Below, piece after piece: positions 302 to 59,861 of a stretch of DNA of 64,000 nucleotides. The stretch lies in IMG/VR virus record IMGVR_UViG_3300045988_074841; one strand, written 5' to 3'. A program made the position numbers and the translations under genes. The notes below the pieces were generated by a model, which was not told the origin of the DNA, did no database searches, and was given only the letters and a program-made list of their open reading frames with translations. The DNA is from a virus. Each line of letters opens with the position of its first letter. Within the stretch, counting starts at the first letter, position 1.

Positions 302-310
302 GTTGTTCAA

Positions 311-355
311 GGAGAACCTATCCATCTTCTACGGGGAGGTTCTCCTTTTTATTTT
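311..355 (+). terminator. Hairpin terminator (stem GGAGAACC/GGTTCTCC, T-run); loop carries a variant copy of the GC-rich element
   Basis: 8-bp stem 311-318/338-345 followed by TTTTTATTTT. Confidence 0.6.
326..339 (-). repeat. GC-rich element, variant copy (CTTCTACGGGGAGG) in terminator loop
   Basis: seen in sequence. Confidence 0.7.
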
Positions 356-3791: not shown

Positions 3792-4025
3792 ATGATAATC
3801 ATGGTACAACGTAATATGAATAAGTCTGAACTTAAAGAAAAGATTAGACGTATGAAGATGGAAATTCAAGAACTCGAAGAGTGTCTTGATAAGTATGAAG
3901 AAAGGGATAATCGTTATGACGATGACCCTCAGTATAGAAGTCGTAATCCTTATGACGATGAAGAACGTTATCACGAAAGAGAAGAATATGGGCATCGTGA
4001 GCGTGGTCGTTATGGACGTTATTAA
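3792..4025 (+). CDS. Small highly charged protein (77 aa; C-terminal R/E/Y-rich RNPYDDEERYHEREEYGHRERGRYGRY)
   Basis: ATG ORF immediately followed by composite hairpin element. Confidence 0.4.
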   Translation: MIIMVQRNMNKSELKEKIRRMKMEIQELEECLDKYEERDNRYDDDPQYRSRNPYDDEERYHEREEYGHRERGRYGRY

Positions 4026-4033
4026 TATGAAAT

Positions 4034-4095
4034 CCGCCCCGTAGAAGAGTGTAGTGGTAAGTCTTCTCTAACCATGCCTTCTACGGGGCGTTTAT
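4034..4095 (+). terminator. Composite hairpin: inverted pair of the GC-rich element (CCGCCCCGTAGAAG ... CTTCTACGGGGCG) with ~30-nt loop, then TTTAT
   Basis: Element copies at 4034-4047 and 4078-4090; loop similar to that of the 15866 element. Confidence 0.6.
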
Positions 4096-4108
4096 AATAA
4101 CTAAGCTT

Positions 4109-4531
4109 ATGTATAAAGAAGGTTTTGATGTTTATGATGAACTTCCTGAAGATATGGTTGTTTATCTTCGTTATAATGGTAGACATTTTAATCGTAAACT
4201 AGTTGAGTTTGCAACTAGTAAAATGACTACTAGAGATAGTAACGGAACAGAAATAGCTCTTGAACCTATAACAAGAGAACAGTTAGATAACATGATGAAA
4301 CAATCGAATGTTCATTTAACTAATAATGATAATCCTTATGATGCAGTATTTGTAGCTAATATGTGTAAAGCTGATTACTTAGGTAGTAGTGTTCCTGATG
4401 GATTGCATTTGTGTCTATATGTAAAAGATGTAATAGATGATGTTGATGGTTATGATGGAATAGCTTTTAATCGTTGGTATGCAGACATGTGTCGTAAAGG
4501 TATTCAAATTGATTGGTATAATTGTCGATAA
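4109..4531 (+). CDS. Hypothetical protein (140 aa) in a single-gene, terminator-flanked unit (moron-like)
   Basis: ATG ORF with terminators on both sides (4034-4095 and 4544-4585). Confidence 0.5.
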   Translation: MYKEGFDVYDELPEDMVVYLRYNGRHFNRKLVEFATSKMTTRDSNGTEIALEPITREQLDNMMKQSNVHLTNNDNPYDAVFVANMCKADYLGSSVPDGLHLCLYVKDVIDDVDGYDGIAFNRWYADMCRKGIQIDWYNCR

Positions 4532-4543
4532 CATTAATAATTT

Positions 4544-4585
4544 GAAGCAGCTAGTATTAATATAAATATTGGCTGCTTTAATTGT
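4544..4585 (+). terminator. Hairpin terminator (GAAGCAGC/GCTGCTT)
   Basis: 7-8-bp stem with AT-rich loop, T-rich tail. Confidence 0.45.
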
Positions 4586-4651
4586 GTTAATTAATATATA
4601 GTTACTGCTGATATTGCTAATAAAAAACTATATTTGCAGCAATTAAAGATA

Positions 4652-4978
4652 ATGATAATGGAAATGATAAATCAAATAATACAACAAGTAATAAATAGTT
4701 TTGATTTTACTTATTGTATAGTAGTTAATGTTTTAACTTATTTGCTAGTTACTGTACTTATTTATCTTTGTCGTGGTAATGTAACTAGAACAATTAAGAA
4801 ACTTACATTGCTTTTTAGTATAGTAATTGTTAGTGTTATATATTATGCTATCGGTATTGATGTAAAACTTATTGTAAATAGTTCTATACTTGCTCCTGTA
4901 AGTTGGACTTGGATTATTAAACCAATCTTATCTAAGTTTGGTTATGATTATAAGAATATTGATAATAAAATAAATTGA
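4652..4978 (+). CDS. Small membrane protein (2-3 predicted TM helices)
   Basis: ORF track 4634 start is TTG; first ATG at 4652; candidate -7 box TATATTTG at 4629-4636; strongly hydrophobic sequence. Confidence 0.45.
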   Translation: MIMEMINQIIQQVINSFDFTYCIVVNVLTYLLVTVLIYLCRGNVTRTIKKLTLLFSIVIVSVIYYAIGIDVKLIVNSSILAPVSWTWIIKPILSKFGYDYKNIDNKIN

Positions 4979-4979
4979 T

Positions 4980-5594
4980 ATGGATAAGGTAAAAATAAAT
5001 AAAGTTATTGACGCTTTAGGTCTTTCTCTTGATAATAAGAATATTCTTAAAGCAGCTCTTAATCAAAAAAGTGAAGCTGATATAACTGAAATAGAAACTA
5101 AAGTTGATACTATTGATAAAGAGCTTAATACTGCAAAAGCTGATATTAGTAATTTAGGAGTTAAAGTTAATGACTTCATTAATGCTAATGAAATTATCGA
5201 ACTTGGTGTAGGTATCGACGAAGAAACTAAAGCTAATAATATTGCTAAACTTGGTGACACTCAACATACATTTATTACCAGTATTAATCATGCTTATGGC
5301 ACAGCAAGTTGGATTCCTACTGATGGAGGTAATGCTTTTATTATAACAGATGAAGGTCACGCTGTAACATACAAAATTAGTACTGATGGTGGTGTTACTA
5401 AAGTTAGCGAGTTTACATTAGCTAAACCTAAAGAGTATACTTTACCTGCTGCTACTAAGACAACTCTTGGTGGAGTTAAAGCTATTACAAACATAGTAAA
5501 TGTTGATACTGAAACTGCAACTGTTGCAAGTCTTGCTGGCGTTGTCAACACTCTACTTAATCAACTTAGAGCTGCTGGTATTATTAAATTATAA
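4980..5594 (+). CDS. Putative tail fibre/head fibre-like protein (204 aa)
   Basis: C-terminal PAATKTTLGGVKA...VASLAGVVNTLLNQL resembles phage tail-fibre repeat motifs (ATTT..G.VK); N-terminal coiled coil. Confidence 0.45.
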   Translation: MDKVKINKVIDALGLSLDNKNILKAALNQKSEADITEIETKVDTIDKELNTAKADISNLGVKVNDFINANEIIELGVGIDEETKANNIAKLGDTQHTFITSINHAYGTASWIPTDGGNAFIITDEGHAVTYKISTDGGVTKVSEFTLAKPKEYTLPAATKTTLGGVKAITNIVNVDTETATVASLAGVVNTLLNQLRAAGIIKL

Positions 5595-5633
5595 AATACC
5601 CTTGCTTCTTGCGATGCTAGATGTGTGTCCGTG

Positions 5634-5667
5634 ACCCTCAAGGCTAGAGATTAGTCTTGGGGGTTTT
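5634..5667 (+). terminator. Hairpin terminator candidate (ACCCTCAAG/CTTGGGGGT + TTT)
   Basis: 9-bp stem with one G-U pair, 13-nt loop, short T-run. Confidence 0.4.
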
Positions 5668-5850
5668 ACGTATAATGCAGACGTTAAAATTTTATTTAAG
5701 ATTTTTATTTCTTTGAAATTTACGTTCTAAGCGACTTTTGGTCAATTTATGATTAACTAATAACGGACGTATATCAAGCATACTCAGAAGCTAAATAAAG
5801 TGGGTATATGGCAATGTTTATATCAAAGTTTGATAAGCTAAAATATAAAT

Positions 5851-5935
5851 AAAGGAGGAGGCATATATAACTAAATTATTAACCTGATTGAGGTTTAAGT
5901 TACTAAGTATTTTGACATGAAAGTCCTCCTCCTTT
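5851..5935 (+). promoter_or_regulatory. Long-range inverted repeat AAAGGAGGAGG ... CCTCCTCCTTT (11 bp, 63-nt loop) in the 363-bp leader of the tail-fibre gene
   Basis: Perfect 11-bp arms 5851-5861/5925-5935; loop contains TTGACA-like hexamer and a mini-ORF MKVLLLLLI. Confidence 0.4.
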
Positions 5936-5957
5936 TACTAATATAATTAATAATAAT

Positions 5958-8900
5958 ATGAGTAAAATTCCTGCTATTAATGAGATAGACGCAAATAGTC
6001 CTTCTCAAGAGTCTACAGAAGTTGTAGTTAAAGCTACTACAGTAACTCCTGATATTAATGAAATCCAGGAAACTATTAGTGGTTCTGCAACTATTCAAGA
6101 GATTGATGGTACTCGTAAACCTACAATTAGTGAGATTTATAAGATTGTTAACGATGGACTATTTGAATCTACAACTAATTGGTGGGATTACGCATATAAA
6201 CTTTCTCAAGCTCAACTTAATCAAGATATTATTTCTCGTCTTGATAATGGTGTTATTGGTGGTGGTTATAGTAAAGGTGTTGATATTATAACTACTACTA
6301 GTAATAAACTTCCTAGTAACACTAATGTTTATTCTGCATTAAAGAGCGATTCTCTTTATCCTAAGAAATTAAATGATGAAGTTATTAATGGAATATATGA
6401 TTTTCTTAATGGAATAACTATTGGTAAACCTACTTCTTATACAGGAGGTACTTGGTCTGTAGACCAAATAGGTAAGACACATCTTACTACAGATTATCTT
6501 TATGTTCGTCTTAAAGCTATATTTGAAACTCTTCAAATACTTAATGTTGATACTATTGGTGGTAAGTTAGTTATTTCTCCTGCCGGTAGTATTAGAGTTG
6601 CTTATGTAGATAGAATTAAAATTGATGCTCCAGTATTTACTCATAATGAAGAAACTGATGTTTGGAGTATTTCTCAAGTAGAAGATGAAGAAGGTAATCT
6701 TGTAAATGAAACTCTTAATCAAGAAATTTATCGTTGTTATTTTCTTGGTGAACAAGATGGTGAAGAAATAGATAATAAATGGAAAGTTGGTGATCAAGCT
6801 CAAGCTAAAACTTTCAATGTTAAGAAAGGTACTTATCATAAAGTAGAAAATAGTTATCTTTGGAGACTTGTAGTTAATGTTAGTTCTAATACTGTAGATA
6901 TTGATGGTAAGAAATATCATTATGTTGATTTAAGTCAAATTGATTTTGACTCTGGTTCTGATGCTCCTGCTCCAGGAGATATTCTTAATCAATTAGGACA
7001 TAGATTAAATGATGCTCAACGTCAAACAGCTTTAGTTCTTAATGCTGTTGATAATTATGCTCCTAGTATTACTCTTTATGCTGGAGTAAATTATTATACT
7101 TTACTCAATAAAGAGTATGTAGAATTTGGTGTTTATAATGGTAAAGCTTTCTTCAATGTATATGGCGATATGTATATTGGAGATAAAGGTGAGAATCCTA
7201 AAACTTATATTAAATATAAGAACGGTAAGATTAATATTAAAGCTAATCTTGAAATAGGTTCTAGTATTGGAGATAAAAATCTTGACCAATATATTAAAGA
7301 AAATGGCGGAGTTGATGAAGAAACTGTAAAGAATCTTATTAATAATGCTCAAGTAATTATAGACCTTCAAAATCAAGCTGATGGTGCTATTGAAACTTGG
7401 TTTTATGAAGGTGTACCTACTCTTGATAATCTTCCTGCTGTAGATTGGAATACTAACAAATTAAAGAAGATACATATAGGTGATTTGTATTATGACCAAA
7501 CTACTGGTTATGCTTATCGTTTTACTAAATATAATGATGATGTTAATTCTTATCGTTGGAATCGTATTAAGGATAACGATATTGTTACTGCACTTGAAGC
7601 TGCCAATCATGCTCAAGCTACAGCTGATGGTAAAATGAAAGTATTCTATGGTGAGACTAAACCTACTAATTATAAAGTTGGTGATATGTGGGTTAATGCT
7701 ACTCTTGAAGGAAAGTTTAATAATGATATAGCTAGAGCTGTTGCAGATAATGAAACTTTCAATGCTAATGATTGGGTTTTAGCTTCTCGTTATTCTGAAG
7801 CTATCGCTACTATTCAAAAGTGGACTAATGAATATGAAACTAAGTTTGGTGATCTTGCTAAGGAAGTTAAAAATCAAAAAGACCAAAGTATTATTGTTTG
7901 GTATCTAGAATATGAACCTACTGTAGATAATGCTCCTGCTAATACTTGGAATACTGAAACTCTTCGTTCAGAACATATTGGTGATATAGTTTATGATATT
8001 AAAAATAATCATTCTTATCGTTGGACTGGTACTGTTTGGATACAAATAAAAGATGCTGACTTTAATGAAGCTATGAAAGCTGCTAAAGCTGCTGACGATA
8101 AAGCTGGAGCTGCTGGAGATTTAGCTGATAGTAAGCGTCGTATATTCTATTCTGATACTACTCCTACTAAACCTTTTGATAAAGGCGATTTATGGATTAA
8201 ACAAGTTAAGGATAAAACTGAAACTTGGGTTTATAATGGAACTGATTGGGTTAAATCTGAAGATAAAGATTTAGCTGATTTTAGTGAAGCTATAAATGAA
8301 GAACTTGGTGGTATTAAAGATCAGCTTGATGGTAAAGCTGAAATTTGGTATCAAGTAGATGACCCTAGTAAATCATGGACTGATAAATCTGTTCATGAAG
8401 GCGACATTTGGTATAATACTACTTATGGTACTACTAATTATTGGAATGGTAGTGCTTGGGAACAAATGGATATTCCTAAAGATGTATTTGATACTATAGA
8501 TGGTAAGTCTTCTATATTTGTAGATTCTTATGATGATGCTAAAGCTGGAACTGGTGTTATATGTAAAGGTTATAAAGAACGTGACCTTTGGATTCTTCCT
8601 GAAGATGCTACTGTTAATGGTGTTAAGTATTATAAAGGAGATATGCTTACTGCTGTTTCTAATAATACAAACTTTGACGAAACTAATTGGAAAAAGAAAG
8701 TTCGTTATGTTGGGCAAGCTGAATTAACTAGTGCTATTGATATAGTAAACGATAAGATTAATACTATCAATAATACAACAATTCCTGGTATTAATAATAA
8801 GTTTAATGAGTTTGTTAAAGATGGAGTACTTGATTCTTCTGAGAAAGCTAGACTTACTGACTTATTAAATCAAGCTAATAATGAAGTTGCTGCTGTTGTA

Positions 8901-11900
8901 GACCAAGTTAATAATATTATTACATCTAAATATCTTACTAATGATAATGCTAATAAAGGTAAGTTGGAAGAAGCCAATACTGTTATGAATACAGCTTGGA
9001 CTGAATATAAGAACCTTATTAATACGCTTATAGATGCTAATACTGAAATAACTAAAATTAATATAGGAGAAGCTAATACTAAATATAAGAACCTTCAAGA
9101 GAAGATTAAAGCAGTTAAACAATATCTTGCTATTTGTCAAGCTGATGTACTTAGTGGTATGGGTACTGATATTACTTCATACAAATATCTTAAAGAAGCA
9201 TTTAAAGGTAAAACTGAAATAAATGGTGGTCTTGTAGTTACTAACGTACTTCAACTTCGTCAAACTTCTGATGCTTCTTCTCCTGTTACTGCTGGTATTA
9301 GTGGACTTCAAGGAAAAGCTAATGCTGATGGTATTGTAGATAAAAATACTTATGATATAACATCTATTGCTGCTTGGTTTGGCGGTCCAATGGTAGATAA
9401 AGATATATTTACAGATGAACAACTTAACAATAAAGTAGCTGGTACAGATTATGCTAGAAGTTTGTTTAGACATGATGGTAGTGGTTATTTAGCTAGTGGA
9501 GCTATTTATTGGGGAACTGATGGTGTATTACATGGCGACCCAAATAGTTTCATTCTTCAAGGTACTAGTATTGCAACAATATTTTATTATACTAGATTAT
9601 TCTATTTACATTATGCTAATCAAGATAGTACAGATTTTAATGATATAGATTATATTACTCCTAAGAAAACTTTTAGTAGACTTAATATTTTACCTTTAGG
9701 TGGTATTGAAGATAGTCATAATCTTCCTACTGGTTTATTTATTGGAGATAGTAATACTGGTGGTTCTTTTCAAATTGGTAATGTAATTCTTAGAACAAAG
9801 AGTGGAGATCCTAATATACTTGAAATAGTTAGTGCTAGTAGTAATAAAACAGCTCATCTTGGAGTACAAGGTGGAGTTAGTGCTTATGGAACATACACAC
9901 CTTCTACGGGGGGTGAAGGTGGACTAAATGGAACTATAATTCCTTATAGTACTGCTATTGCTTTTGACCCTCAAAATGAAGGAAGTAAAATAGCTAGTGC
10001 TAGTTCTATTTATAAGCTTCATAGTAGAATATCTAGTATTGAAAATAATGGTGCTACTAGTATAACTGTAACTGGAACAGGTAATGCTATTACTAGTGTT
10101 AGTAAAAATGGAACTAGCATTACTTTTACTAAAGATGCTACTTTCTTGACTAGTCATCAAAGTTTAGCAAATTATGTTACTATTAATGATAGTAGACTTA
10201 GTGATAGTCGTTATCCTAAATTTGCTAATAATACTTGGTATTTAGTAGGAGACGATGCTTATATTGGCGACCATAATAGAAATGGTATGTTTTGTATTAA
10301 ATCTGCCAATTCTGATAATGTAAGTGGTATAGCAATCTATAATAAAGCTGAAAGTGGTGTTGCTAATATTTGGTTTGATAATACAAATATAAACCTTGAT
10401 AAACAACTTGTTATGAAAAACAAGCGTATTTGGATTCAAGGTAACGGTACTGCTGGAGGTAATAATAATAGACTTACTATTGCGGCAGGTATGCCTGGTG
10501 GATTAGCATATAATACTTCATGTCGTGGAACTATTCTTTATTCTAATGGAATTGCATTCGCTGACCCATATAATGGTAATTCAAATAATGATAGTGGATG
10601 GATTAGACATTTAGAAACTTCTCCTAATAGTGGAACTTTAGAAATAGCAGTAGGTGATGATGCTTCAAATGAAGAAATTCATTTCAGATGGTATAATACA
10701 AATACTAGTGCAGAAACTATAGTACACGATATAACTGTTCCTAGATCTACAGGTACTTTAGTTTTAACTAGTCAAATACCTACAAGTCTTCCTGCAAATG
10801 GAGGTAATGCAGATACAGTTGATGGAATTCATGCAAATGGACTTCTTACTGCTCTATCTAATTCTGATAATGGAATTAGTATAACAGTTGGTGGAACTAC
10901 TAAAAGTGTTAGTAATATAAATGTAAATGGCGCTAATACAATTTTAGGAATTTCTCCTCAAATAGCTGCGGCTACAGAACATAATAGTATATATGTATCA
11001 AGTCCTGGTTATTCTACTAACAAACCAGTTAAAATGTTATGTTTTGATTGGTATGGTAATTATTGGGCACTTAGCAATATAAGAAGTGGAGATGAACATA
11101 GTAATGGATTTGGTGTATTTTTTAAAAATACAGAAATAGCTAGATTTACTTCTGATGGAAATCTTAGTTGTAATGCAGCTTCTGCAACTAAGCTGACTTC
11201 TTCAGCTGGCAGTGATACATTGCCAATTTATTTCTCAGATGGAAAACCTGTCGCTTGTACTATGAGTACTGGACGAAGTTATGGAATAGTACGATCTTTC
11301 GATCGTAGAACATATACATCTGCTAATCAATATTTCGGAAATGGTACTATTGTAGCAATAGATCCAAAAGGAGAGGGATGTATTTCGACAAATGATACTA
11401 TACTTTCATTGGGTGATTTGTCAATAAGAAATACTCAACTTTTAGTAGCATACGACAGAGATGGTGTTTATTATAGAAGAATAACAGATAATCTAAACTA
11501 TGGGAACTGGAAAAGATTAGCATTTACATCTGACAATGTAGCTTCTGCAACTAAACTTCAAACTCCTAGAACTATTTGGGGACAATCTTTTAATGGCACT
11601 GCTAATGTTAGTGGGTCTTTATCTGGAGTTGGTCATATACAATTTAGTGCAGATAATTCTTATAGTATTGGAACAAATACTTCAGAAGCGGCTCACACTT
11701 ATACAAGACAAGTATGGGCTAGACATTTAAATGCTAGTCGAGTTTATACTCGTGATACTAATTTATATATCGGTTATAGTAATACTGCGCAAGTAAAGTT
11801 ATATTCAGGTACTAAACAATCAGGAGACGGCTCTAATGAACGAATGACCATATCAACTAATGGTAATGTAGGTATTGGAACTGCTTCTCCTTCTTACAAA

Positions 11901-13571
11901 CTCCATGTTGAAGGTAATATTTATTCATCTGCTATTATTAGAACTGCTGCTAAAAATCAAGCTATTGTATTAAGTAACAATTCCCGTCCTGCTTGGATTA
12001 GTGCTCTAGAAGGTCAGATAATATTCAATACTGGTAATGCTATTCGTTTTGGTGAAACTGCTTGGGATTGGAATCAATGGGCTGGACTTAAATATACTCA
12101 CTCTAATAAAACTATTTATCTTGGTATAGCTGATAATTCTGCATTTAATGCTAATCCTGCACAAAGTGATGGTACGCTTAGACTTGCAGGTATTAAAACT
12201 GTAACTCCTGATAGTGGAGCTAGAATTGGAAATAGTGGTGGTGATTTATATTTAGGTAATGCTAGTAATAGTGCTTGTGTGAAAGTTCAAGATATGTGTA
12301 GTCAAACTACTAGTGATAATTGGATTATATATCAAGGTGGTAGTGCTAAGTTTAAAAATCTCACTATTAATGGTAATACTAGTATTAGTGGAACAACTAT
12401 TATAAATAGTAATTTAACAGTTAATGGTTTAATATATAATAAAGGTATACTACCTGCAAATTATGAAGTTAATAATAAAGGAACTAGTTGTTATGTTTCA
12501 GCTGATGCTTTATGTTCTGGAATTACTGCTATTACTGATAGTATACCTATTAGTAATGTAACTGTACAATATTCTAACGATAGCGGTAATAGTTGGACTA
12601 ATTATTCTATGGATAATAATAATAAATTTAATCTATATGCTAATAATGCAGGTTTAAATAACGTTTACTTAGGTTATAATGTTATTCCTCCTGATATTGA
12701 CCCTGATGTATTAAATCAAATAAAGGATGAAGCTGAGAAATTAGCACTAATAAAAAAGAATGAAGCTGAGAAACTAGCTCAAATAAAAAAGAACGAATTA
12801 ATGGTTACATTTAATGTTCCTAATAATTGTTATTCTCAAGTTTATTTTGCTAGTGTTGATATGACAAATGGTATTAATACTATTTGTACTGTAGAAATAA
12901 TAAACAATAGTGGTGCTGTAGTTGAAACTTTTACTAAACATATGGCTGGATGGAATCAAATTAATTATATAAGTCTATTACATGATAGTAATGTTGGTTA
13001 TGGTGTAGGAAATGATAGTAGAAGATATATTAGATTTAGGTTTAAACATGACCAAAAGACTACTGCTTTACGTAATGCTGTAATATATAAAATACGAATA
13101 TTTTCTTTTACTAAGTATTCATTTCCTACTGATAGATTTATGGGTCATACAGGTCATATATATAATTTCGATTATAATATGAATACTTACTTCCCTAATA
13201 GTATTCTTGCTAAAGGTGGAGTTACAGCTTATCAATCTTCTGATGTTCGTCTTAAAACTAACATTACTAAACTTAATTGTTTAAATGTTATTAAAAGCAT
13301 TGGAGGTACTTATGAATTTGATTATATTCGTGACCATAAACATAGTATTGGTTTTATTGCTCAAAATGTAAATAATCCATTACTTAATGATATAGTTGCT
13401 AAAGATGATAATGGTTATCTAAAGATTAACTATTGGAGTCCTAAACTTATTAGTCTTGCTTTTGGTGCTTTAACTGAAATAGATGATGAAGTTGATAAAC
13501 TTAAAGCTAGAGTTAGAGAATTAGAAAGTGAAGTTGAATATTTAAAGAACAAAGATTATGTCTTACAATAG
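5958..13571 (+). CDS. Tail fibre/tail spike protein (2537 aa) with C-terminal intramolecular chaperone auto-processing (peptidase S74-like) domain
   Basis: C-terminal SSDVRLKTNITKLN...SIGFIAQNV...INYWSPKLISLAFGAL + terminal coiled coil match the endosialidase/tail-spike ICA signature (SDxRxKxNI ... GFIAQEV); multiple Trp/Tyr-rich beta-repeat modules (GD.WY.....YRW); long Gly/Asn/Ser/Thr-rich beta-helix-like middle. Confidence 0.8.
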   Translation: MSKIPAINEIDANSPSQESTEVVVKATTVTPDINEIQETISGSATIQEIDGTRKPTISEIYKIVNDGLFESTTNWWDYAYKLSQAQLNQDIISRLDNGVIGGGYSKGVDIITTTSNKLPSNTNVYSALKSDSLYPKKLNDEVINGIYDFLNGITIGKPTSYTGGTWSVDQIGKTHLTTDYLYVRLKAIFETLQILNVDTIGGKLVISPAGSIRVAYVDRIKIDAPVFTHNEETDVWSISQVEDEEGNLVNETLNQEIYRCYFLGEQDGEEIDNKWKVGDQAQAKTFNVKKGTYHKVENSYLWRLVVNVSSNTVDIDGKKYHYVDLSQIDFDSGSDAPAPGDILNQLGHRLNDAQRQTALVLNAVDNYAPSITLYAGVNYYTLLNKEYVEFGVYNGKAFFNVYGDMYIGDKGENPKTYIKYKNGKINIKANLEIGSSIGDKNLDQYIKENGGVDEETVKNLINNAQVIIDLQNQADGAIETWFYEGVPTLDNLPAVDWNTNKLKKIHIGDLYYDQTTGYAYRFTKYNDDVNSYRWNRIKDNDIVTALEAANHAQATADGKMKVFYGETKPTNYKVGDMWVNATLEGKFNNDIARAVADNETFNANDWVLASRYSEAIATIQKWTNEYETKFGDLAKEVKNQKDQSIIVWYLEYEPTVDNAPANTWNTETLRSEHIGDIVYDIKNNHSYRWTGTVWIQIKDADFNEAMKAAKAADDKAGAAGDLADSKRRIFYSDTTPTKPFDKGDLWIKQVKDKTETWVYNGTDWVKSEDKDLADFSEAINEELGGIKDQLDGKAEIWYQVDDPSKSWTDKSVHEGDIWYNTTYGTTNYWNGSAWEQMDIPKDVFDTIDGKSSIFVDSYDDAKAGTGVICKGYKERDLWILPEDATVNGVKYYKGDMLTAVSNNTNFDETNWKKKVRYVGQAELTSAIDIVNDKINTINNTTIPGINNKFNEFVKDGVLDSSEKARLTDLLNQANNEVAAVVDQVNNIITSKYLTNDNANKGKLEEANTVMNTAWTEYKNLINTLIDANTEITKINIGEANTKYKNLQEKIKAVKQYLAICQADVLSGMGTDITSYKYLKEAFKGKTEINGGLVVTNVLQLRQTSDASSPVTAGISGLQGKANADGIVDKNTYDITSIAAWFGGPMVDKDIFTDEQLNNKVAGTDYARSLFRHDGSGYLASGAIYWGTDGVLHGDPNSFILQGTSIATIFYYTRLFYLHYANQDSTDFNDIDYITPKKTFSRLNILPLGGIEDSHNLPTGLFIGDSNTGGSFQIGNVILRTKSGDPNILEIVSASSNKTAHLGVQGGVSAYGTYTPSTGGEGGLNGTIIPYSTAIAFDPQNEGSKIASASSIYKLHSRISSIENNGATSITVTGTGNAITSVSKNGTSITFTKDATFLTSHQSLANYVTINDSRLSDSRYPKFANNTWYLVGDDAYIGDHNRNGMFCIKSANSDNVSGIAIYNKAESGVANIWFDNTNINLDKQLVMKNKRIWIQGNGTAGGNNNRLTIAAGMPGGLAYNTSCRGTILYSNGIAFADPYNGNSNNDSGWIRHLETSPNSGTLEIAVGDDASNEEIHFRWYNTNTSAETIVHDITVPRSTGTLVLTSQIPTSLPANGGNADTVDGIHANGLLTALSNSDNGISITVGGTTKSVSNINVNGANTILGISPQIAAATEHNSIYVSSPGYSTNKPVKMLCFDWYGNYWALSNIRSGDEHSNGFGVFFKNTEIARFTSDGNLSCNAASATKLTSSAGSDTLPIYFSDGKPVACTMSTGRSYGIVRSFDRRTYTSANQYFGNGTIVAIDPKGEGCISTNDTILSLGDLSIRNTQLLVAYDRDGVYYRRITDNLNYGNWKRLAFTSDNVASATKLQTPRTIWGQSFNGTANVSGSLSGVGHIQFSADNSYSIGTNTSEAAHTYTRQVWARHLNASRVYTRDTNLYIGYSNTAQVKLYSGTKQSGDGSNERMTISTNGNVGIGTASPSYKLHVEGNIYSSAIIRTAAKNQAIVLSNNSRPAWISALEGQIIFNTGNAIRFGETAWDWNQWAGLKYTHSNKTIYLGIADNSAFNANPAQSDGTLRLAGIKTVTPDSGARIGNSGGDLYLGNASNSACVKVQDMCSQTTSDNWIIYQGGSAKFKNLTINGNTSISGTTIINSNLTVNGLIYNKGILPANYEVNNKGTSCYVSADALCSGITAITDSIPISNVTVQYSNDSGNSWTNYSMDNNNKFNLYANNAGLNNVYLGYNVIPPDIDPDVLNQIKDEAEKLALIKKNEAEKLAQIKKNELMVTFNVPNNCYSQVYFASVDMTNGINTICTVEIINNSGAVVETFTKHMAGWNQINYISLLHDSNVGYGVGNDSRRYIRFRFKHDQKTTALRNAVIYKIRIFSFTKYSFPTDRFMGHTGHIYNFDYNMNTYFPNSILAKGGVTAYQSSDVRLKTNITKLNCLNVIKSIGGTYEFDYIRDHKHSIGFIAQNVNNPLLNDIVAKDDNGYLKINYWSPKLISLAFGALTEIDDEVDKLKARVRELESEVEYLKNKDYVLQ
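9901..9914 (-). repeat. GC-rich element copy (CTTCTACGGGGGGT), in-frame in tail fibre (PSTGGEG)
   Basis: seen in sequence. Confidence 0.7.
12729..12794 (+). repeat. 33-nt tandem duplication inside tail-fibre gene (EAEKLALIKKNE / EAEKLAQIKKNE)
   Basis: gaagctgagaaattagcactaataaaaaagaat / gaagctgagaaactagctcaaataaaaaagaac. Confidence 0.8.
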
Positions 13572-14841
13572 TAATAGTGGAATTATTAGTGCTCCTGTTA
13601 GTATTGATGATGTTAAACAAGCTCTTGGAGAGAGTAGCAATGACCTTGCTACTCTTTGTAAGAGTGAAAATATAAATATATGGAGTAAGTATAAACCTAT
13701 TAGTTGTAAAGGTGACTTTAAAGAATATCCTATTAGAGAAGACTATGAGGAAACTGTAACATCTTCATATAATAATTATACTTGTGCTGTTCGTTGTGGT
13801 ATGAATATACCTATGGATACTTATAGAAACTTATATAATAATTATGGTGGAGAAGGTTTTGCTATTAACGCATGTGAAAATCTTCATAGAGATAATGTAT
13901 ATGGAAGAAATGGAGGTATTAACGATAATAAAAGTGCAAATGTATCAGGAAAACATTTTCCAAAAGGTGGTGCTAATTCTCCTTATAGATTAAGTGATTT
14001 TAGAAACTATAATGCTAAAGCAAAGTATAATGGTTTTCGAACTTCTCTTCCTCAATTTAATAATGTTGAAATTTATCATTCTTCAACTCCTAAATTTAAT
14101 TGTGTTCTATATATGGATACAAGTGTTGATAATAATACAAATCTTACTATGGATGATATAATAACTGATTTATCTTTAGCTTGGTCTTTTTGGGTTCAAA
14201 TTCGTTATGATTCACCATATAACACTGTTGATAAGATTTATAAAAATTATTATGTTGGTAATTGTCAAAAACCAACAGATTATATATACGCAAGCAAAGA
14301 AATAACTTTTGATATAGGTAACGATAAAGAAATTACTATTGTACCTTTTTTAGCATGTACTCGTAGTGCAACTTTATATGATAATACAAAAATAATTTTT
14401 ATATCTCTTCCGGGTGATATTACTTTTAAGTATTATCCTAGACAAATTTATATGGAAAATATTAAAAGTGGTTCTAGTGGTTTTGTTGATTTCTCATCAT
14501 TAAGAGAATTAGTTGGTGGTAGTTGTATTTGTAAAGCAAAAATATATAAACTTCCTGATGCTGAAATTACAATTAATGATGGTATGTTTAGAAGTATTGC
14601 TGCTTATGGTATTAATAAGATAACATATGGAAGAGGTTATGTATCTAATAGTTCTGGTCAAGGTATAGGTTCTGTAACTATTCCTAAAGGTGATAGAACA
14701 GATTATGTTGAAGTATATATAAGATTTGATAATGTTTACGAAGGAGGTTATTATGGAGAAAAATGTCAATTATCTTTTGAAATTAATATAGATGGTGGAT
14801 GGAAACAAGTTCCTTCAGGAGGTAGTTATATTATGCGTTAA
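13558..14841 (+). CDS. Hypothetical tail-associated protein (427 aa)
   Basis: ATG overlapping tail-fibre stop by 14 nt (coupled); Cys-containing, Asn/Tyr-rich. Confidence 0.5.
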   Translation: MSYNSNSGIISAPVSIDDVKQALGESSNDLATLCKSENINIWSKYKPISCKGDFKEYPIREDYEETVTSSYNNYTCAVRCGMNIPMDTYRNLYNNYGGEGFAINACENLHRDNVYGRNGGINDNKSANVSGKHFPKGGANSPYRLSDFRNYNAKAKYNGFRTSLPQFNNVEIYHSSTPKFNCVLYMDTSVDNNTNLTMDDIITDLSLAWSFWVQIRYDSPYNTVDKIYKNYYVGNCQKPTDYIYASKEITFDIGNDKEITIVPFLACTRSATLYDNTKIIFISLPGDITFKYYPRQIYMENIKSGSSGFVDFSSLRELVGGSCICKAKIYKLPDAEITINDGMFRSIAAYGINKITYGRGYVSNSSGQGIGSVTIPKGDRTDYVEVYIRFDNVYEGGYYGEKCQLSFEINIDGGWKQVPSGGSYIMR

Positions 14842-14927
14842 AACGTAGATGTTATTAATATAATAAATGTGCTAGAAACAATATTAATTTACTTATCAAA
14901 TAAGTATAACTATTTAATAATACAATT

Positions 14928-15242
14928 ATGGAAATTAAAGTAACTAAAATTGTAAGTATGACTTCTAATGTAGAAGCTACTGTAAATGAACTTAGTATAA
15001 ATGCTAATGTTCGAGTTCGTAACAATGACACTATCGAAGGTATAGATAGCGGTAATGTAAAAGATAGTAATAGTAATCAACTAGCTAGCTTTAGTTATTA
15101 TGGAAGTAATAATCTTAATATTAATTATAATAGTATTGAGAATGGTAATATTGCTTCTGTTAGTACTGCTGTTAATGATTTCATTAAAGAACTAGAGAAA
15201 AATCCTTCTCTTGTAAGTACTGCAAATACTAGTGAAAACTAA
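14928..15242 (+). CDS. Hypothetical protein (104 aa)
   Basis: ATG ORF; Asn/Ser-rich. Confidence 0.4.
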   Translation: MEIKVTKIVSMTSNVEATVNELSINANVRVRNNDTIEGIDSGNVKDSNSNQLASFSYYGSNNLNINYNSIENGNIASVSTAVNDFIKELEKNPSLVSTANTSEN

Positions 15243-15250
15243 GTGATTAC

Positions 15251-15324
15251 TTTGCAAATATATTAAAATATATTATTATATATATAACGTAGTTATATAA
15301 TAATATATTATTAATATATTTGCA
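15251..15324. promoter_or_regulatory. Large AT-rich imperfect palindrome centred on ACGTAG; each arm carries TATATTTG (TAnnTTTG -7 box)
   Basis: Arms TTTGCAAATATATTAAAATATATTATTATATATATAAC / GTTATATAATAATATATTATTAATATATTTGCA; -7 box at 15315-15322 lies ~36 nt upstream of ATG 15358. Confidence 0.4.
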
Positions 15325-15357
15325 TTACAAATTAAACATCAAAATAATAGAGTTATT

Positions 15358-15855
15358 ATGATTAAAGTAAAACAAAGTAATGCTGTTAGTGCATACAATG
15401 TACTCAAGCAAATTAAGACTAAAGAACTTCCTGCTGAAGTAGCTATTGCTATTTGGAAGAACGTAAAAGTATTAAAGCCTATTGCAACTTCTTATGAAGA
15501 AGCTATTAAAGATTCTAAAGAATCTCTTAAAGGTGATAATGATGAAGAGATGTCTAAGCTTCTTGCTGAACTTCAAAAGAAAGAAACTGATGAAGCTGCT
15601 GGTAAATATACTTTTACTCGTACTGATAATGAAAATCGTGCTAAAGTAACTGAGTATTATTCTAATGCTCAAAATAAACTTAATACTTTTATTAAAGACC
15701 TTGATAATAAAGAAGTAGAAGTAGAACATACTACTATTAAAGAGGATGATTTAATTAAAGCTCTTATTGGTACTGATTTTAATATTGGTGTTATTGAACT
15801 TATTGATTTCTTATTTGAAGATGCTCCTAAAGCAGATGATAAAGAAGATAAGTAA
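15358..15855 (+). CDS. Acidic hypothetical protein (165 aa)
   Basis: ATG ORF, followed by composite hairpin element. Confidence 0.5.
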   Translation: MIKVKQSNAVSAYNVLKQIKTKELPAEVAIAIWKNVKVLKPIATSYEEAIKDSKESLKGDNDEEMSKLLAELQKKETDEAAGKYTFTRTDNENRAKVTEYYSNAQNKLNTFIKDLDNKEVEVEHTTIKEDDLIKALIGTDFNIGVIELIDFLFEDAPKADDKEDK

Positions 15856-15865
15856 AACATTAAAC

Positions 15866-15930
15866 CCGCCCCGTAGAAGATGTAATTGGTAGAACTTCTA
15901 CTAATCATACCTTTTACGGGGCGGCTTTCA
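15866..15930 (+). terminator. Composite hairpin: inverted pair of GC-rich element (CCGCCCCGTAGAAG ... CTTTTACGGGGCGG) with conserved ~31-nt loop containing mini-palindrome GTAGAAcTTCTAC
   Basis: Copies at 15866-15879 and 15911-15924; sits between stop 15855 and start 15956. Confidence 0.6.
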
Positions 15931-15955: not shown

Positions 15956-16645
15956 ATGAGTAGTTTATCTCAACTTACTAGTGAAATTTTACATGGTGTA
16001 GGTCAGCCTAATAATCATACTCTACGTGAAAGAGTTCGTAATGCTATAATTCATACTCGTAATGAACTTATACGTAGAAGTTATGAAAACCATGCTTATG
16101 TTGATAAAATTCATACTCAACGTTTTAAAGTTTCACTTATTACAGTTAATGATGGTGATGTAGAACTACCTGAAGATTATGAAGGAGTTCCACTTGATAA
16201 AATTAAAAGAACTCTAGATAAAGTTCCAAGACCTATTAGACTTACTAATAATCTTCCTTTTGATAGAGTTAGTTCTGTAGGATATAAAACTAATAGAGAG
16301 TTTCCTTATATTAAAGAAACTACTGCTAGATTTAAAGGAAGTGTTCCTGGACTTTGTGGTGCTATTAGTTATGATTATATTAATGAATATCTTTATTTAT
16401 TTCCAGCTAGTAAAGATAGAATTGTTCCAGTAGATACTATTGTTATTGAATCTGCTTTTGAACATCCTAATCAAATTCTAGATATTAATGGAGACCTTAC
16501 TGTTGAGAATCATCTTTATGATGACAACGAGTGGTTACTTAGTGAAGATATGATTGGTCAAATAAAAGAAATAATATATAAAAGGGAACTATTAAATCAA
16601 CATCAAGAAACAGATGAAGTTCCTAATACTATAAAATATAATTAG
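15956..16645 (+). CDS. Hypothetical virion protein (229 aa)
   Basis: ATG ORF, first gene of operon ending at terminator 25442. Confidence 0.5.
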   Translation: MSSLSQLTSEILHGVGQPNNHTLRERVRNAIIHTRNELIRRSYENHAYVDKIHTQRFKVSLITVNDGDVELPEDYEGVPLDKIKRTLDKVPRPIRLTNNLPFDRVSSVGYKTNREFPYIKETTARFKGSVPGLCGAISYDYINEYLYLFPASKDRIVPVDTIVIESAFEHPNQILDINGDLTVENHLYDDNEWLLSEDMIGQIKEIIYKRELLNQHQETDEVPNTIKYN

Positions 16646-22708: not shown

Positions 22709-25429
22709 ATGACTGTAAAAATTAAAAGAAGAAGTCTTCGTTGTGGTGGTAGACCTAAAGCTGACTTCGGTAGTATTTTTACTACATTTATTGCTCCTGC
22801 TTTAGGTGTTGCAGGTTCTGTAGCGGATTCTGCTATAAGTAAAACCCAAGTTTCAAAGAGCAATACTAAACAGGTTGTTAAAGATACTAACACAGAAGTT
22901 ACTAATAATAATACTTCTGTTGAGAATCTTCCTACTATTCAAGTTCCTACTAAAGATCCAATTAGTGGACTTGTTACTAGTAATACTGTTATTCCTCCTG
23001 ACCCAACTAAAACTCCTACTATGAGACTAGGTGGTAGAAAGAAATGTTGGATTGGTGCAGCCATTGGTGCTGCTACTAGTATAGCAGGTTCTTTATTTGG
23101 TGCTGCTGCTCAAAAAAGAGAAATGCGTCGGCAAAAGAGTATTCAAGATTGGCAGAATACAACTCAAGAAGCTGCTAATATGACTACTGCTCTTAATAAT
23201 AGTCAAGATTATCAAGAAGATTATCTTAGACAATTTAGAACTGCTGCTAGACTTGGTAAAACTCTTGGAGCTAAAGGTATTTATATTACTGATGGTGGAG
23301 ATGCTACTAAGATAGGAAACAACACATATCTTCTACGGGGCGGTTCTCACGAAGATGTGAATGAGACTGGTCAAACAGGTATTGGTATCAATGTTGGTGG
23401 TAATGAAGTTGAAGCTGAAGGTGGTGAAGTTGCTCAGAAGAAGAATGGTGCTCTAAGAATTTTTAGTGCTCAACCTATTCTTGGTGGTATAAGTCCTGCT
23501 CAAGCTGTAATTAATGGAGCTAACAAAGATAAAGTATTTAGTACTCAACAAACTTTTAAGAAAAGAAATGGTCTTGAAGATGATGGTAGTAAAGCTCAGG
23601 TTGGTGGTTATTATGGAGCTAACTATCCTTCTCCTTTGTCTTTATTATCTGTTATTTACGATAAAACTTTAGGAAGATTTGATAATAAAAATCCTTTCCT
23701 TCAAACAGGTACTGCACCAACTCCTAGTAGAGGTTTAAATCTTAAGCAAGTTCGTGGTGGACTTGTTAATAGAAATATGCTTCGTACTAATAGAGTTTAT
23801 CGTATATCAAATATGAGAGAAGTAAAAGATGCTAAATCTGTAGGACAATATAGAAAATTACCTGAAGGCGTTAGACTTCCTAAAAAAACTGTAGTAAGTA
23901 AAAATGGAAGAACTTTCTCGATTGGAAAAGTTGGTGGTAATAGTCATGGAGGAAAAGCTGCTGCTATGGGTGAACCTTGGACTGGAACAACTAGCGGAGG
24001 ATACAATGAAAGTAAATATGTTATAAGTACTCCTTCTAGACATACAGTTTGGCAAGTAGGTCATCATGGAAGTTATTCTAAACCTCTTCCTGCTGATGCA
24101 ATAAAAAAAGGTAGTGGTCTTTGGAAAAAATTCGATGCTGAAGGTAATACTGGAATTAGTACTAAACGCATGGTTGTGTATAAAGATTTAGGTAATGGTA
24201 GATATTTAAGATTAGCTAAAAGTAAATATAGACTTGGTGGCGGTTTAACTTCTAAAGATAGAGGTTCTTCTAAACATCCATATCCTTCTGTATCATCTAA
24301 AGATTTTGCAGGTGGTAGTAGAAGTTATCCTATTCCAACTAAAGATGATGCTGTTGATGCTTTAAGACTTGCTGGTCTTCATGGAAGAAGTGATGTTAGA
24401 AGTAAAGTATATAGTAAATATCCTAGTCTTAGAAAGAAGAGTTTATTAGGTGGTTGTAGCCGCCCCGTAAAAGGTATGAGACCTAAAGCTGATACTGGTA
24501 TCTTTGTTCCTTTCAATAAACGTTATACTTCTATTTATGATGCTCCAGATTATAATTCTGATTATAATGGTGGTAATGTTTTAGGTAACGGTGAAGTAAC
24601 AGTTACAGCTAAGAGAATTAAGCCTACTTTTATGAAACCAAATAATGATGCAATGAATATCATTAATCATCCTGCTAATGAAACTCCTTATATTCCACAA
24701 AGACATAATCGTAGTCGTACTATATTTAGTGGTGGAGATTATTTAGGATTAGGTATTGATACTCTTGCTGCATTAAGTACAGGTCTTGTAAATTATAATA
24801 CTGCTGGTAAATATGTTCTTCCTGATAGAGCACCTATTATTCAGGCTAGTAAATTACCTACAACTTATAATGTTAATCCTGAAATAGAAGAGGTTAAACG
24901 TTATAGAGATAGACTTACTGGGCAAACATTCAATAATACTTCAAGTTCTGTAGCTGCTCTTAATAGAAGTGGTGCTATTAATCTTGATGCTCTTTCTAAT
25001 CTTAGTAAACTTTGGGCTACTAAAGAGAATGAAGAGAACAAGATGCTTACAGAAGATGCTAAGAATCAACAAACTGTTGCAGCACAGAATGTACAGAATG
25101 AACTTGCTCGTCAAAGTGAAATTGCTAGAATTAAGAATGAAGCTAATCAAGCTAAGGGTGATGCTCTTAATGTTGGTCTTAGTGGATTGTCTCAAGCTTG
25201 GACTAATTTCTGGACTGCTGGTAGAACTGCTTATGAAGATGACCAAGCTAGACGTGCAATGATTGCTTCTAGTAAAGATGCTACTCCTACTAGACTTATG
25301 GAAATGGATTTTGATTTATCTCCTGATGTTATAGCTGCTCTTTATAGAACTTCTAACGAAGATAGAACTAAACGATTCTATTTGTCTAGATTGTCTCCTA
25401 AACAAAGACAAAAATATGGTATAAATTAA
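22709..25429 (+). CDS. Gly-rich virion cargo/ejection protein (906 aa) with glycine-zipper TM-like segments and C-terminal coiled coil
   Basis: FTTFIAPALGVAGSVADSAIS and WIGAAIGAATSIAGSLFGAAA segments; internal duplicated CGGRPKAD(F/T)G(S)IF module; two in-frame GC-rich element copies. Confidence 0.6.
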   Translation: MTVKIKRRSLRCGGRPKADFGSIFTTFIAPALGVAGSVADSAISKTQVSKSNTKQVVKDTNTEVTNNNTSVENLPTIQVPTKDPISGLVTSNTVIPPDPTKTPTMRLGGRKKCWIGAAIGAATSIAGSLFGAAAQKREMRRQKSIQDWQNTTQEAANMTTALNNSQDYQEDYLRQFRTAARLGKTLGAKGIYITDGGDATKIGNNTYLLRGGSHEDVNETGQTGIGINVGGNEVEAEGGEVAQKKNGALRIFSAQPILGGISPAQAVINGANKDKVFSTQQTFKKRNGLEDDGSKAQVGGYYGANYPSPLSLLSVIYDKTLGRFDNKNPFLQTGTAPTPSRGLNLKQVRGGLVNRNMLRTNRVYRISNMREVKDAKSVGQYRKLPEGVRLPKKTVVSKNGRTFSIGKVGGNSHGGKAAAMGEPWTGTTSGGYNESKYVISTPSRHTVWQVGHHGSYSKPLPADAIKKGSGLWKKFDAEGNTGISTKRMVVYKDLGNGRYLRLAKSKYRLGGGLTSKDRGSSKHPYPSVSSKDFAGGSRSYPIPTKDDAVDALRLAGLHGRSDVRSKVYSKYPSLRKKSLLGGCSRPVKGMRPKADTGIFVPFNKRYTSIYDAPDYNSDYNGGNVLGNGEVTVTAKRIKPTFMKPNNDAMNIINHPANETPYIPQRHNRSRTIFSGGDYLGLGIDTLAALSTGLVNYNTAGKYVLPDRAPIIQASKLPTTYNVNPEIEEVKRYRDRLTGQTFNNTSSSVAALNRSGAINLDALSNLSKLWATKENEENKMLTEDAKNQQTVAAQNVQNELARQSEIARIKNEANQAKGDALNVGLSGLSQAWTNFWTAGRTAYEDDQARRAMIASSKDATPTRLMEMDFDLSPDVIAALYRTSNEDRTKRFYLSRLSPKQRQKYGIN
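23330..23343 (-). repeat. GC-rich element copy (CACATATCTTCTACGGGGCGG) in 906-aa gene (LLRGGS)
   Basis: seen in sequence. Confidence 0.8.
24460..24480 (+). repeat. GC-rich element copy, 21 nt (CCGCCCCGTAAAAGGTATGAG) inserted in second copy of an internal duplication of the 906-aa gene (SRPVKGM)
   Basis: seen in sequence; absent from paralogous segment at 22741-22779. Confidence 0.85.
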
Positions 25430-49175: not shown

Positions 49176-49196
49176 CCGCCCCGTAAAAGAGTTGAT
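49176..49196 (+). repeat. Solitary GC-rich element copy (CCGCCCCGTAAAAGAGTTGAT) 2 nt after vRNAP stop codon
   Basis: seen in sequence; no inverted partner nearby. Confidence 0.8.
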
Positions 49197-49331: not shown

Positions 49332-49402
49332 TGCTCTATGGTGTAATGGTAGCACTACAGATTTTGGTTCTGTCAGAGCAGGTTCGAATCCTGCTAGAGT
49401 AA
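49332..49402 (+). tRNA. tRNA-Gln (anticodon UUG)
   Basis: Hand-folded cloverleaf: acceptor TGCTCTA/TAGAGTA (one G-U), D-arm GTGT-AATGGTA-GCAC, anticodon arm ACAGA-TTTTGGT-TCTGT (anticodon TTG at 49364-49366), T-arm GCAGG-TTCGAAT-CCTGC; 71 nt, no encoded CCA. Confidence 0.8.
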
Positions 49403-49487
49403 CAAATGCTATAAGTTCTAAACTACTTGCTAAATTAATTGTTTATAGGGTTTAAATGTGGTTTAAGGTGATATTTATAAAGTTCTT

Positions 49488-52019: not shown

Positions 52020-52045
52020 AACTTCACTACCTTAACTAATAACGA

Positions 52046-52077
52046 CACTACAAAGATAGAAAAATTCCTCGTTTCTA
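52046..52077. terminator. Bidirectional hairpin (12-bp stem TTCCTCGTTTCT/AGAAACGAGGAA, 5-nt loop) flanked by A/T runs on both sides
   Basis: Perfect 12-bp inverted repeat; lies only ~25 nt upstream of (-)-strand start at 52019. Confidence 0.5.
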
Positions 52078-52310
52078 TCACAGAAACGAGGAAAAAATGT
52101 CGTTAATTTGTGTTAAGGCTAACTATAACTATCTGATAATCAATTAGTTACAGCGTCAAAAATTGGCTCTATATATATAATATATTAGTCCTATGATATT
52201 TGACACGGCAAAGATAACTAAAAAGTAGTATACTGGTACAACTTTTAAGCTAAATGTTGTATATATCTACAATATTTTCTATAGTAGCATTAACATCACC
52301 TACTTCACAT

Positions 52311-59708: not shown

Positions 59709-59831
59709 ATTATTAAGTTATTTAATATTTTAATTTTGTTTCTAACGAATTGAATTTAGTTATATGAATAACTAATAAGCGAGCATAATAAAGCCGCTCA
59801 CACATGAAGTAAAGTGGAAATCTGCCACATT

Positions 59832-59845: not shown

Positions 59846-59861
59846 CTCTAGCAATTTGATG

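Follow-up and report, generated by a model that had tools for sequence, protein, structure and literature searches.

Composite GC-rich hairpins, and the dispersed element of about 24 nt from which they are built, are described here in a 64,000-nt stretch of viral DNA (IMG/VR virus record IMGVR_UViG_3300045988_074841), the whole of which is referred to below as the window. The window belongs to a crAss-like phage of the Intestiviridae, near cr8_1 (subfamily Obtuvirinae). The element is present throughout the family, is oriented, is selected at the DNA level and is kept at regular intervals on alternating strands. The composites are read, with a probability of about 0.6, as gene-end RNA hairpins formed from inverted copies of this DNA-selected element, which would end, attenuate or stabilise the upstream transcript.

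In the explanation proposed, the mRNA would fold into imperfect hairpins directly past the stop codon at 4034–4090, 15866–15924 and 52311–52380. These would probably act on the 3′ end of the upstream transcript, in the role that more distant crAss-like phages give at both slots studied here to ordinary GC hairpins with T-runs. The GC-rich base of the stem would consist of two inverted copies of the dispersed element, and what had been called a conserved loop would be the weakly conserved 3′ flank of the element, present twice in inverted order and therefore paired. The element would be the primary feature. Very long genes would carry it written in rare codons, its sequence would drift in concert in each lineage, and the phage may encode a factor that recognises it as an oriented site and comes upon the DNA from both directions. 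Where the space between genes is short, pairs of elements would be reused as the sole GC-rich material for stable hairpins.

The crAss-like phages are the most abundant human gut viruses; to our knowledge, almost nothing is known of the transcription, replication and organisation of their 90–100-kb genomes. The nearest annotated relative of the window is the uncultured crAss-like phage cr8_1 (Intestiviridae, Obtuvirinae, Fohxhuevirus), and about 30 IMG/VR contigs (55–222 kb) share 85–98% identity with the window. The window has a GC content of about 30%, with plus-strand genes up to about 49.2 kb, then a tRNA-Gln gene, then minus-strand replication genes. Its giant plus-strand open reading frames (ORFs) encode 2537, 1467, 2357 and 4457 aa.

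Structure and placement of the composite hairpins

The composites in the window are as follows:
4034–4090, plus strand: composite hairpin 1, with 5′ arm 4034–4047 (sense copy), imperfect upper stem 4048–4077 and 3′ arm 4078–4090 (antisense copy)
15866–15924, plus strand: composite hairpin 2, with 5′ arm 15866–15879, upper stem with apex GTAGAA-C-TTCTAC and 3′ arm 15911–15924
52311–52380, minus strand: composite hairpin 3, with tail-to-tail arms, 52311–52324 and a degenerate copy at 52367–52380
59789–59850, minus strand: decayed composite (−24.1 kcal/mol), in which an intact sense copy (59832–59843) pairs with a degenerate partner, followed by UUUAUUAU

The inverted pairs of the GC-rich core given for hairpins 1 and 2 in a preliminary description of this DNA are present. 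The arms of hairpin 1 are CCGCCCCGTAGAAG (4034–4047) opposite CTTCTACGGGGCG (4078–4090), and those of hairpin 2 are CCGCCCCGTAGAAG (15866–15879) opposite CTTTTACGGGGCGG (15911–15924). Hairpin 3, described earlier as a pair with a different loop, does have a different interior, and its arms stand in the reverse order, CTTCTACGGGGCGG ... CCTCCCCGTAAAGG.

RNA structure prediction, which had been suggested as a check, gives −33.3 kcal/mol for hairpin 1 (z = −8.0) and −37.0 kcal/mol for hairpin 2 (z = −9.9), with none of 200 shuffles as stable in either case; hairpin 3 folds on the minus strand with −32.8 kcal/mol. The stem base is GC-rich and 13–14 bp long. The 30-nt loop attributed to hairpins 1 and 2 is actually an imperfect upper stem. 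It pairs with itself, so that both form imperfect hairpins of 26–30 bp with an apical loop of 3–6 nt, and the mini-palindrome GTAGAA-C-TTCTAC that had been pointed out is found at the apex of hairpin 2. The resemblance claimed between the two interiors is borne out, since 23 of 31 positions are identical and the alignment score is not reached in 5000 shuffles. Thus hairpins 1 and 2 are paralogous direct repeats, and the likeness of their interiors is one of common descent.

Hairpin 1 begins 9 nt past the stop of ORF 3792–4025 and ends 18 nt ahead of the ATG at 4109. Hairpin 2 begins 10 nt past the stop at 15855 and ends 31 nt ahead of the ATG at 15956, which opens the tail ring protein 2 gene. 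Hairpin 3 is directly 3′ of the stop of minus-strand ORF 52387–52671, and the distance from the stop codon across the composite hairpins is 6–10 nt. The decayed composite lies between minus-strand ORFs 59862–60218 and 58079–59551 and has an ortholog in cr8_1 at 86688. The gene-end placement described earlier therefore stands, but the T-rich tracts said to follow do not: after the stems of hairpins 1 and 2 there is TTT only, then mixed A/T.

The block 4109–15855 between the paralogous hairpins 1 and 2 occupies 11.8 kb in the window and about 4 kb in cr8_1. It contains DUF7841, a protein with a head-fibre-like C-terminal region, the 2537-aa protein and others. This block, which has direct repeats of about 60 nt at its ends, may be a host-range cassette.

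Beside hairpin 3, an intergenic stretch of about 300 nt (52004–52307) gives way to unrelated sequence in many close relatives. Homology breaks at 52004 in eight loci and at 52307, exactly the hairpin 3 arm and the strongest break versus relatives, in 20; the record of cr8_1 starts and ends at the matching stretch. A role of the copies as recombination hotspots or module boundaries finds weak support, as a copy is no more than 40 nt away from 4 of 66 clusters of homology breaks versus close relatives, where 1.6 are expected (p = 0.09), and only the break at 52307 is striking. The comparison with cr8_1 offers too few high-identity segments for homology breaks.

Probable gene-end function in two intergenic slots

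The hairpin 1 slot was compared at 80 loci in which a relative of the downstream DUF7841 gene is present; these gave 66 distinct upstream regions. In the clade of the window the hairpin is kept and its interior varies. The clade at 83% protein identity shows CCGCCCTGTAAAAG ... CTTTTACGGGGCGG with unrelated short interiors. In the clade at 71% identity the 5′ arm is CTGCTCTGTAGAAG, with three C to T changes that all give G.U pairs with the intact 3′ arm, and the clade at 61% identity has arms CTCCTCTGTAGAAA and CTTCTACGGGGGAG. At least 17 more distant relatives, which lack the motif, carry an ordinary GC stem-loop followed by a T-run.

The hairpin 2 slot holds an ordinary hairpin plus T-run in loci L231 and L232, two arms around an unrelated 16-nt interior in L227, and a 58-nt interior in cr8_1; in L229, L230, L235 and crAss002 it holds an antisense copy alone. 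The interiors in the 83%-identity clade and in cr8_1 are unrelated and differ in length. The loop had been taken as the mark of a special structured RNA, and its conservation in relatives as a point on which that idea should stand or fall. That conservation is limited to the genus and fails beyond it, and the loop thus does not mark a structured RNA of this sort.

The pairing itself is retained. In an alignment of the 13 distinct arm pairs from the hairpin 1 slot, 94.5% of cells are paired, a value matched by none of 500 shuffles. On the sense strand there are 15 G.U cells versus 4 A.C (binomial p = 0.02, uncorrected for phylogeny). Since the C to T decay of the 5′ arm produces G.U pairs, and given the pairing in this alignment, pairing on the mRNA strand appears to be retained even where the 5′ arm is no longer a copy of the element.

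This bears on the possibility that a reader of the single element would use the composites as bivalent sites on double-stranded DNA, or as cruciforms, with the RNA hairpin incidental, much as phage P1 has dispersed C1 operators in monovalent and bivalent form. Such an explanation would account for the many sites with a single element and no hairpin, and for pairs that occur both head-to-head and tail-to-tail. It would also suit p-crAssphage, in which motif palindromes of 130–155 nt by two RepL genes look like architecture at the DNA level. But the diverged 5′ arm loses the DNA motif (CTGCTCTG...) and still keeps G.U pairing on the sense RNA, ordinary terminators occupy the same slots in relatives without the motif, and no repressor-like gene was seen among the few proteins scanned. 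Composites that act as bivalent DNA sites are therefore considered unlikely; a dimeric protein operator, suggested in the preliminary description, is conceivable.

The two palindromes in p-crAssphage (BK010471) are at 28066–28196 and 95734–95888 and fold with −68 and −63 kcal/mol. The bases of both are inverted element copies, and both are in long intergenic regions, each some hundreds of bases upstream of one of the two RepL-like genes. Rather than terminators, these could be origins or cruciforms.

A second possibility is that the hairpins are processing or stability elements in polycistronic late transcripts, such as RNase III-type substrates or barriers to 3′ exonucleases, comparable to T7 R sites or REP hairpins. 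The imperfect stems of 26–30 bp with internal mismatches would suit this, a proper U-run is absent, and the next gene is too close to leave space for a promoter. However, in distant relatives classical terminators (hairpin plus T-run) occupy the same slots, and these are also situated right before the next ATG. RNA processing as the function is somewhat improbable on this evidence.

Several observations weigh against a gene-end hairpin function as proposed above, and against its terminator form in particular. It is position only that suggests termination. The stems of hairpins 1 and 2 are followed by just 3 U's, neither was called by a consensus terminator scan of the window, and the composite at 22892–22950 in p-crAssphage is also without a T-run. 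The 18 and 31 nt that follow hairpins 1 and 2 leave no space for a promoter, and a strong terminator there would starve the downstream genes, so that a full stop would be less likely than partial termination or stabilisation of the RNA. The transcribed strand gives the better fold in 3 of 3 cases in the window, but in 5 of 7 over all genomes examined, which is not significant. Compensatory changes in the arms are ambiguous because the element evolves in concert, with which such changes are confounded. In the covariation check that the preliminary description had recommended, among close relatives hairpin 2 shows 8 one-sided changes that preserve a pair, 5 broken cells and no double-sided change. 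Finally, the sole candidate reader of the element that was examined, an "IHF-like" (integration host factor-like) protein, is rejected, as ORF 15956–16645 encodes a tail ring protein.

The assignment of that ORF is to Pfam CrAss_Ring_2, tail ring protein 2 (E-value = 3e-49). It is labelled "integration host factor subunit" in related records, and the IHF label of public crAss annotations is misleading.

A 3′-end function on RNA is still the best reading of the composite hairpins, as far as sequence comparison can suggest one. The GC-rich stem-loop lies just past the coding region, the slot is held by terminators in relatives and the pairing is conserved, while the U-run of an intrinsic terminator (usually at least 5 in 8) is missing. 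The terminator role proposed earlier is thus favoured by position and by the slots of relatives and disfavoured by the U-run and the consensus scan. For hairpins 1 and 2 an attenuator or 3′-end stabiliser is equally possible. The composites are classed as terminator-like gene-end hairpins of unusual build.

The dispersed element

The core 12-mer GCCCCGTAGAAG, allowing up to 2 mismatches, has 20 copies in the window, where shuffled sequences give a mean of 0.72 and a maximum of 3. Conservation extends from about −7 to +17 around the core, and the consensus in the window is TCTAGCC-GCCCCGTAGAAG-ATGTG, about 24 nt. The single element is asymmetric and not palindromic. The window has 20–21 elements in all, and 12 of 21 copies are inside ORFs. 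Outside the composites, the copies are:
309–352, plus strand: ordinary hairpin plus U5 terminator, the loop of which holds an antisense motif copy (326–337)
9901–9912, minus strand: in ORF 5958–13571, antisense
23330–23341, minus strand: in ORF 22709–25429, antisense; ortholog at cr8_1 29625
24462–24473, plus strand: in ORF 22709–25429, sense; ortholog at cr8_1 27563, an identity island with diverged flanks
27545–27556, plus strand: in ORF 26740–28632, sense, reads IRPVKDM
32230–32241, minus strand: in ORF 28635–35708, antisense; ortholog at cr8_1 20144
34546–34557, plus strand: in ORF 28635–35708, sense, in an acidic linker
35434–35445, minus strand: in ORF 28635–35708, antisense; not in cr8_1, one-codon length change
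38523–38534, plus strand: in ORF 35801–49174; degenerate (GCCACG) here, intact in most close relatives
42594–42605, minus strand: in ORF 35801–49174, antisense; not in cr8_1, no indel
43359–43370, plus strand: in ORF 35801–49174, sense, reads IRPVEDV
49178–49189, plus strand: solitary copy without hairpin, 4 nt past the stop of the 4457-aa ORF; ortholog at cr8_1 3395
56653–56664, plus strand: in minus-strand ORF 56384–57034, antisense; ortholog at cr8_1 88033
62696–62707, plus strand: in the DnaG-type primase gene 62308–63534 (minus strand), antisense, encodes FYGADG

The copy at 49178–49189 has its 3′ flank, TTCTACTAAT, in common with hairpin 2. About half of the sites in the window are orthologous to cr8_1 sites, including in-gene sites at which the motif is an island of identity. 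Near the copy at 24462, a 193-nt segment of the window (24238–24430) is 96% identical to cr8_1, with surrounding genes at about 75–80%. It stops 38 nt short of the copy, cr8_1 has about 700 extra bases there, and the identity may reflect a recent exchange. At the junction of the two gene modules is the tRNA-Gln gene (anticodon TTG, 49332–49403), as it is in cr8_1.

In five more Intestiviridae, p-crAssphage (the prototype crAssphage) and two cultured phages among them, each genome has 24–31 copies, for example:
cr8_1 (Obtuvirinae): 24 copies, TCTAGCC[G/C]CCCCGTAAAAGGTATG
crAss002 (Churivirinae, cultured): 27 copies, TTCCCCC[G/A]TA[A/G]AGGAG
p-crAssphage (Crudevirinae): 31 copies, TAGACCCCCCGT[A/G]GAGGATGGA
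Rudgehvirus jaberico (Crudevirinae, cultured): 25 copies, CCCC[T/C]GTA[A/G]AGGAG

More distant contigs of about 90 kb have the variant CTAGCTCCCCCGTAGAAGGAATGT. Between the window and cr8_1 a G/A difference, GTAGAAG versus GTAAAAG, is consistent across sites, so the element evolves in concert. In one lineage the CpG of the core has become TpG at most copies. Decay of this single CpG is lineage-wide in L291 (Logan ERR2144985_253), L227, L313–L320, L380 with L381, and L292 with L293; the L291/L227 lineage and Rudgehvirus have CCCTG as the product, and half of the copies in crAss002 have CCCCA. Such a pattern would be expected of a methylated, deaminating cytosine or of a shift in the specificity of the reader.

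In crAss001 (Steigviridae; MH675552, first 100 kb) the CCCCGT element is absent. The 9-mer CTCCAGAAG(R)(R) occurs 27 times over the two strands, versus about 1.7 expected from an order-3 Markov model, with a mean gap of 3.75 kb and strand switches at 19 of 26 steps (P = 0.003). The element of the Intestiviridae may have a shorter homologue (CYCC..ARARG) in this 9-mer. No comparable element was found in phi14:2, and a published study of that phage reports promoters and nothing resembling the element. The phenomenon is established for the Intestiviridae only; its occurrence across the order is not established. In the library of papers searched, motif strings and crAss repeat keywords gave no relevant match, and the element is apparently undescribed.

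Several lines of evidence place selection on the DNA. In-gene copies use the codons CCC, GGG, CGC and ACG, each of which makes up 1–2% of its codon family. Among close relatives divergence is about 0.02 in the core versus about 0.07 in the flanks. In the primase, [F/L]YG is followed by residues that track the DNA variant of the lineage, giving FYGADG, FYGGAG or FYRADR; at this site it is the DNA signal that dictates the protein sequence. The primase site is the only one common to all four phages compared (window phage, cr8_1, p-crAssphage and crAss002, from three subfamilies), and is the 1 shared site among the 3–11 mappable sites between subfamilies. A repeat at the protein level is ruled out by the two orientations, the intergenic copies and the use of the rarest codons; the uniform reading frame of the sense copies follows from stop codons in the other two frames.

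The density is one locus per 3.5–4.1 kb in every genome examined. Spacing and strand alternation were evaluated in six genomes from three subfamilies. In each of five genomes (P <= 0.018) the coefficient of variation of the spacing is lower than with random placement, 0.50–0.64 versus 0.92–0.95. Strand switches between neighbouring copies are:
crAss002, composite pairs removed: 20 of 24, P = 0.0009
cr8_1, composite pairs removed: 18 of 20, P = 0.0004
p-crAssphage, composite pairs removed: 14 of 20, P = 0.04
Rudgehvirus, pairs not removed: 20 of 24, P = 0.0017, a replication outside the five-genome set

In the window itself 9 of 14 steps are switches, which is not significant. Over the five-genome set, which includes the window and the crAss001 9-mer, the combined P for alternation is about 1e-7. 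Sense and antisense copies are equal in number both inside genes and between them, with no orientation bias relative to transcription.

The preliminary description had taken the solitary copies for half-sites or decayed remnants of the composites. This does not agree with copies that are written in rare codons, orthologous across genera, evenly spaced, alternating in strand and present family-wide. Nor are they hidden hairpins, as their folds are only 2–3 kcal/mol more stable than those of controls with the core in random context, and some intergenic copies are hairpin-free. A related idea, that the units are miniature mobile palindromes in the manner of miniature inverted-repeat transposable elements (MITEs), Rickettsia palindromic elements or yeast mitochondrial GC clusters, with solitary copies as decayed halves, draws on GC-rich palindromes in an AT-rich genome, on in-frame copies inside genes and on the paralogy of hairpins 1 and 2 over their full length. 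It is already largely refuted and scarcely credible. Copies gained since the split from cr8_1, which lie in acidic linkers of giant proteins, replace the resident sequence without insertion, with a length change of 0–1 codon in both of the 2 alignable cases. Most sites are orthologous between genera, target-site duplications are absent, and even spacing with strand alternation is not expected of insertions.

The hairpin transcripts could also be small-RNA precursors, the arms of which pair in trans with solitary copies in other mRNAs. Concerted evolution would then need no protein reader, and alternating orientation would supply each copy with a complementary neighbour. An Rfam search places the hairpins below every gathering threshold (only the tRNA passes). 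In E-value mode the matches are to generic miRNA-precursor hairpins only, which could be taken as a hint of such precursors, but at 24–27 bits they are far below thresholds of 66–87. The A/G polymorphism goes the wrong way, because the A that sense copies tend to have opposite an antisense C gives A.C in RNA and not G.U; this also rules out long-range RNA pairing between copies. As both arms are in addition locked in a very stable stem, small-RNA precursors are a very improbable explanation.

A host Chi site is unlikely, since phages of the same host genus carry different motifs. A scan of bacterial genomes for a host repeat gave, among the matches listed, only single chance ones in high-GC genomes.

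Known systems and possible readers

In behaviour, the element would be closest to the DNA uptake sequences (DUS) of Neisseria and uptake signal sequences (USS) of Haemophilus and to the enterobacterial repetitive extragenic palindromic (REP) sequences and bacterial interspersed mosaic elements (BIMEs); for distribution and co-evolution it would be closest to stoperators, P1 C1 operators and T7-type promoters.

Like DUS and USS, the element is a short oriented motif, over-represented on both strands, between genes and also within them in permissive frames. Its copies arise in place by substitution, and its sites turn over at constant density. In both cases inverted pairs often lie just past genes and form a terminator-like hairpin; in Neisseria, inverted DUS serve as terminators. 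However, DUS and USS are 10–12 nt long and occur in competent bacteria, where they are read by the uptake machinery (ComP), whereas the element is about 24 nt, strand-alternating and evenly spaced, and is found in a virulent phage. The element is thus a variant of this dispersed-signal kind.

REP and BIME repeats are likewise dispersed and GC-rich, alternate in orientation and form hairpins that stabilise or terminate mRNA; they are bound at the DNA level by gyrase and IHF. But REPs are palindromic, strictly extragenic, clustered and mobilised by REP-associated tyrosine transposases (RAYTs), whereas the element is asymmetric and occurs inside genes, and no RAYT was seen. The composite hairpins share with Rho-independent terminators a GC-rich stem at the stop codon, positional homology to classical examples and pairing maintained by G.U. 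They differ in the mismatched stem of 26–30 bp, in the 3 U's and in a stem sequence that is repeated genome-wide.

The stoperators of cluster A mycobacteriophages and the P1 C1 operators are also tens of asymmetric sites scattered over a phage genome. The stoperators are lineage-specific and co-evolve with their reader, and the C1 operators occur in single and bivalent forms. Unlike the element, these sites are mostly intergenic and belong to temperate phages with a known repressor, and stoperators are oriented with transcription. Promoters of the T7-group single-subunit RNA polymerases are asymmetric motifs of about 23 nt found every 2–3 kb, partly in genes, and change in concert with the polymerase in each lineage. 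They point in one direction ahead of genes, whereas the element alternates in strand regardless of gene direction and many of its copies are right past stops. The element therefore lacks the palindromic and extragenic character that defines REPs, the insertion polymorphism of MITEs and the transcriptional orientation of stoperators.

The reader would be encoded by the phage, because phages that share a host genus differ in their motif and, within a lineage, the copies change together. It would co-evolve with its signal. Orientation would matter, and both directions of travel along the DNA would need to be served. The role could fall to a replisome or priming factor, to a recombination helicase-nuclease or to the giant virion RNA polymerase. 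We tentatively suggest an oriented signal of 20–30 nt at about every 3.6 kb on alternating strands, such that a machine travelling either way would meet the correct orientation about every 7 kb, although the odds are somewhat against this being the arrangement in use.

Lineages can be told apart simply by their variants of the motif, which might also indicate whether co-infecting phages are compatible. For annotation, GC-rich hairpins at gene ends could be called as 3′-end signals of transcripts in the Intestiviridae. An element that is kept against codon preference, with even spacing and alternation between strands, must have an important reader, and a 24-nt oligonucleotide would be a handle with which to fish out the factor. 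If the suggestion of an alternating signal is true, phages would have in the element a genome-wide cis-signal of a new kind, of which the gene-end hairpins are a secondary use, and a helicase-nuclease as its reader would make it a phage-specific Chi.

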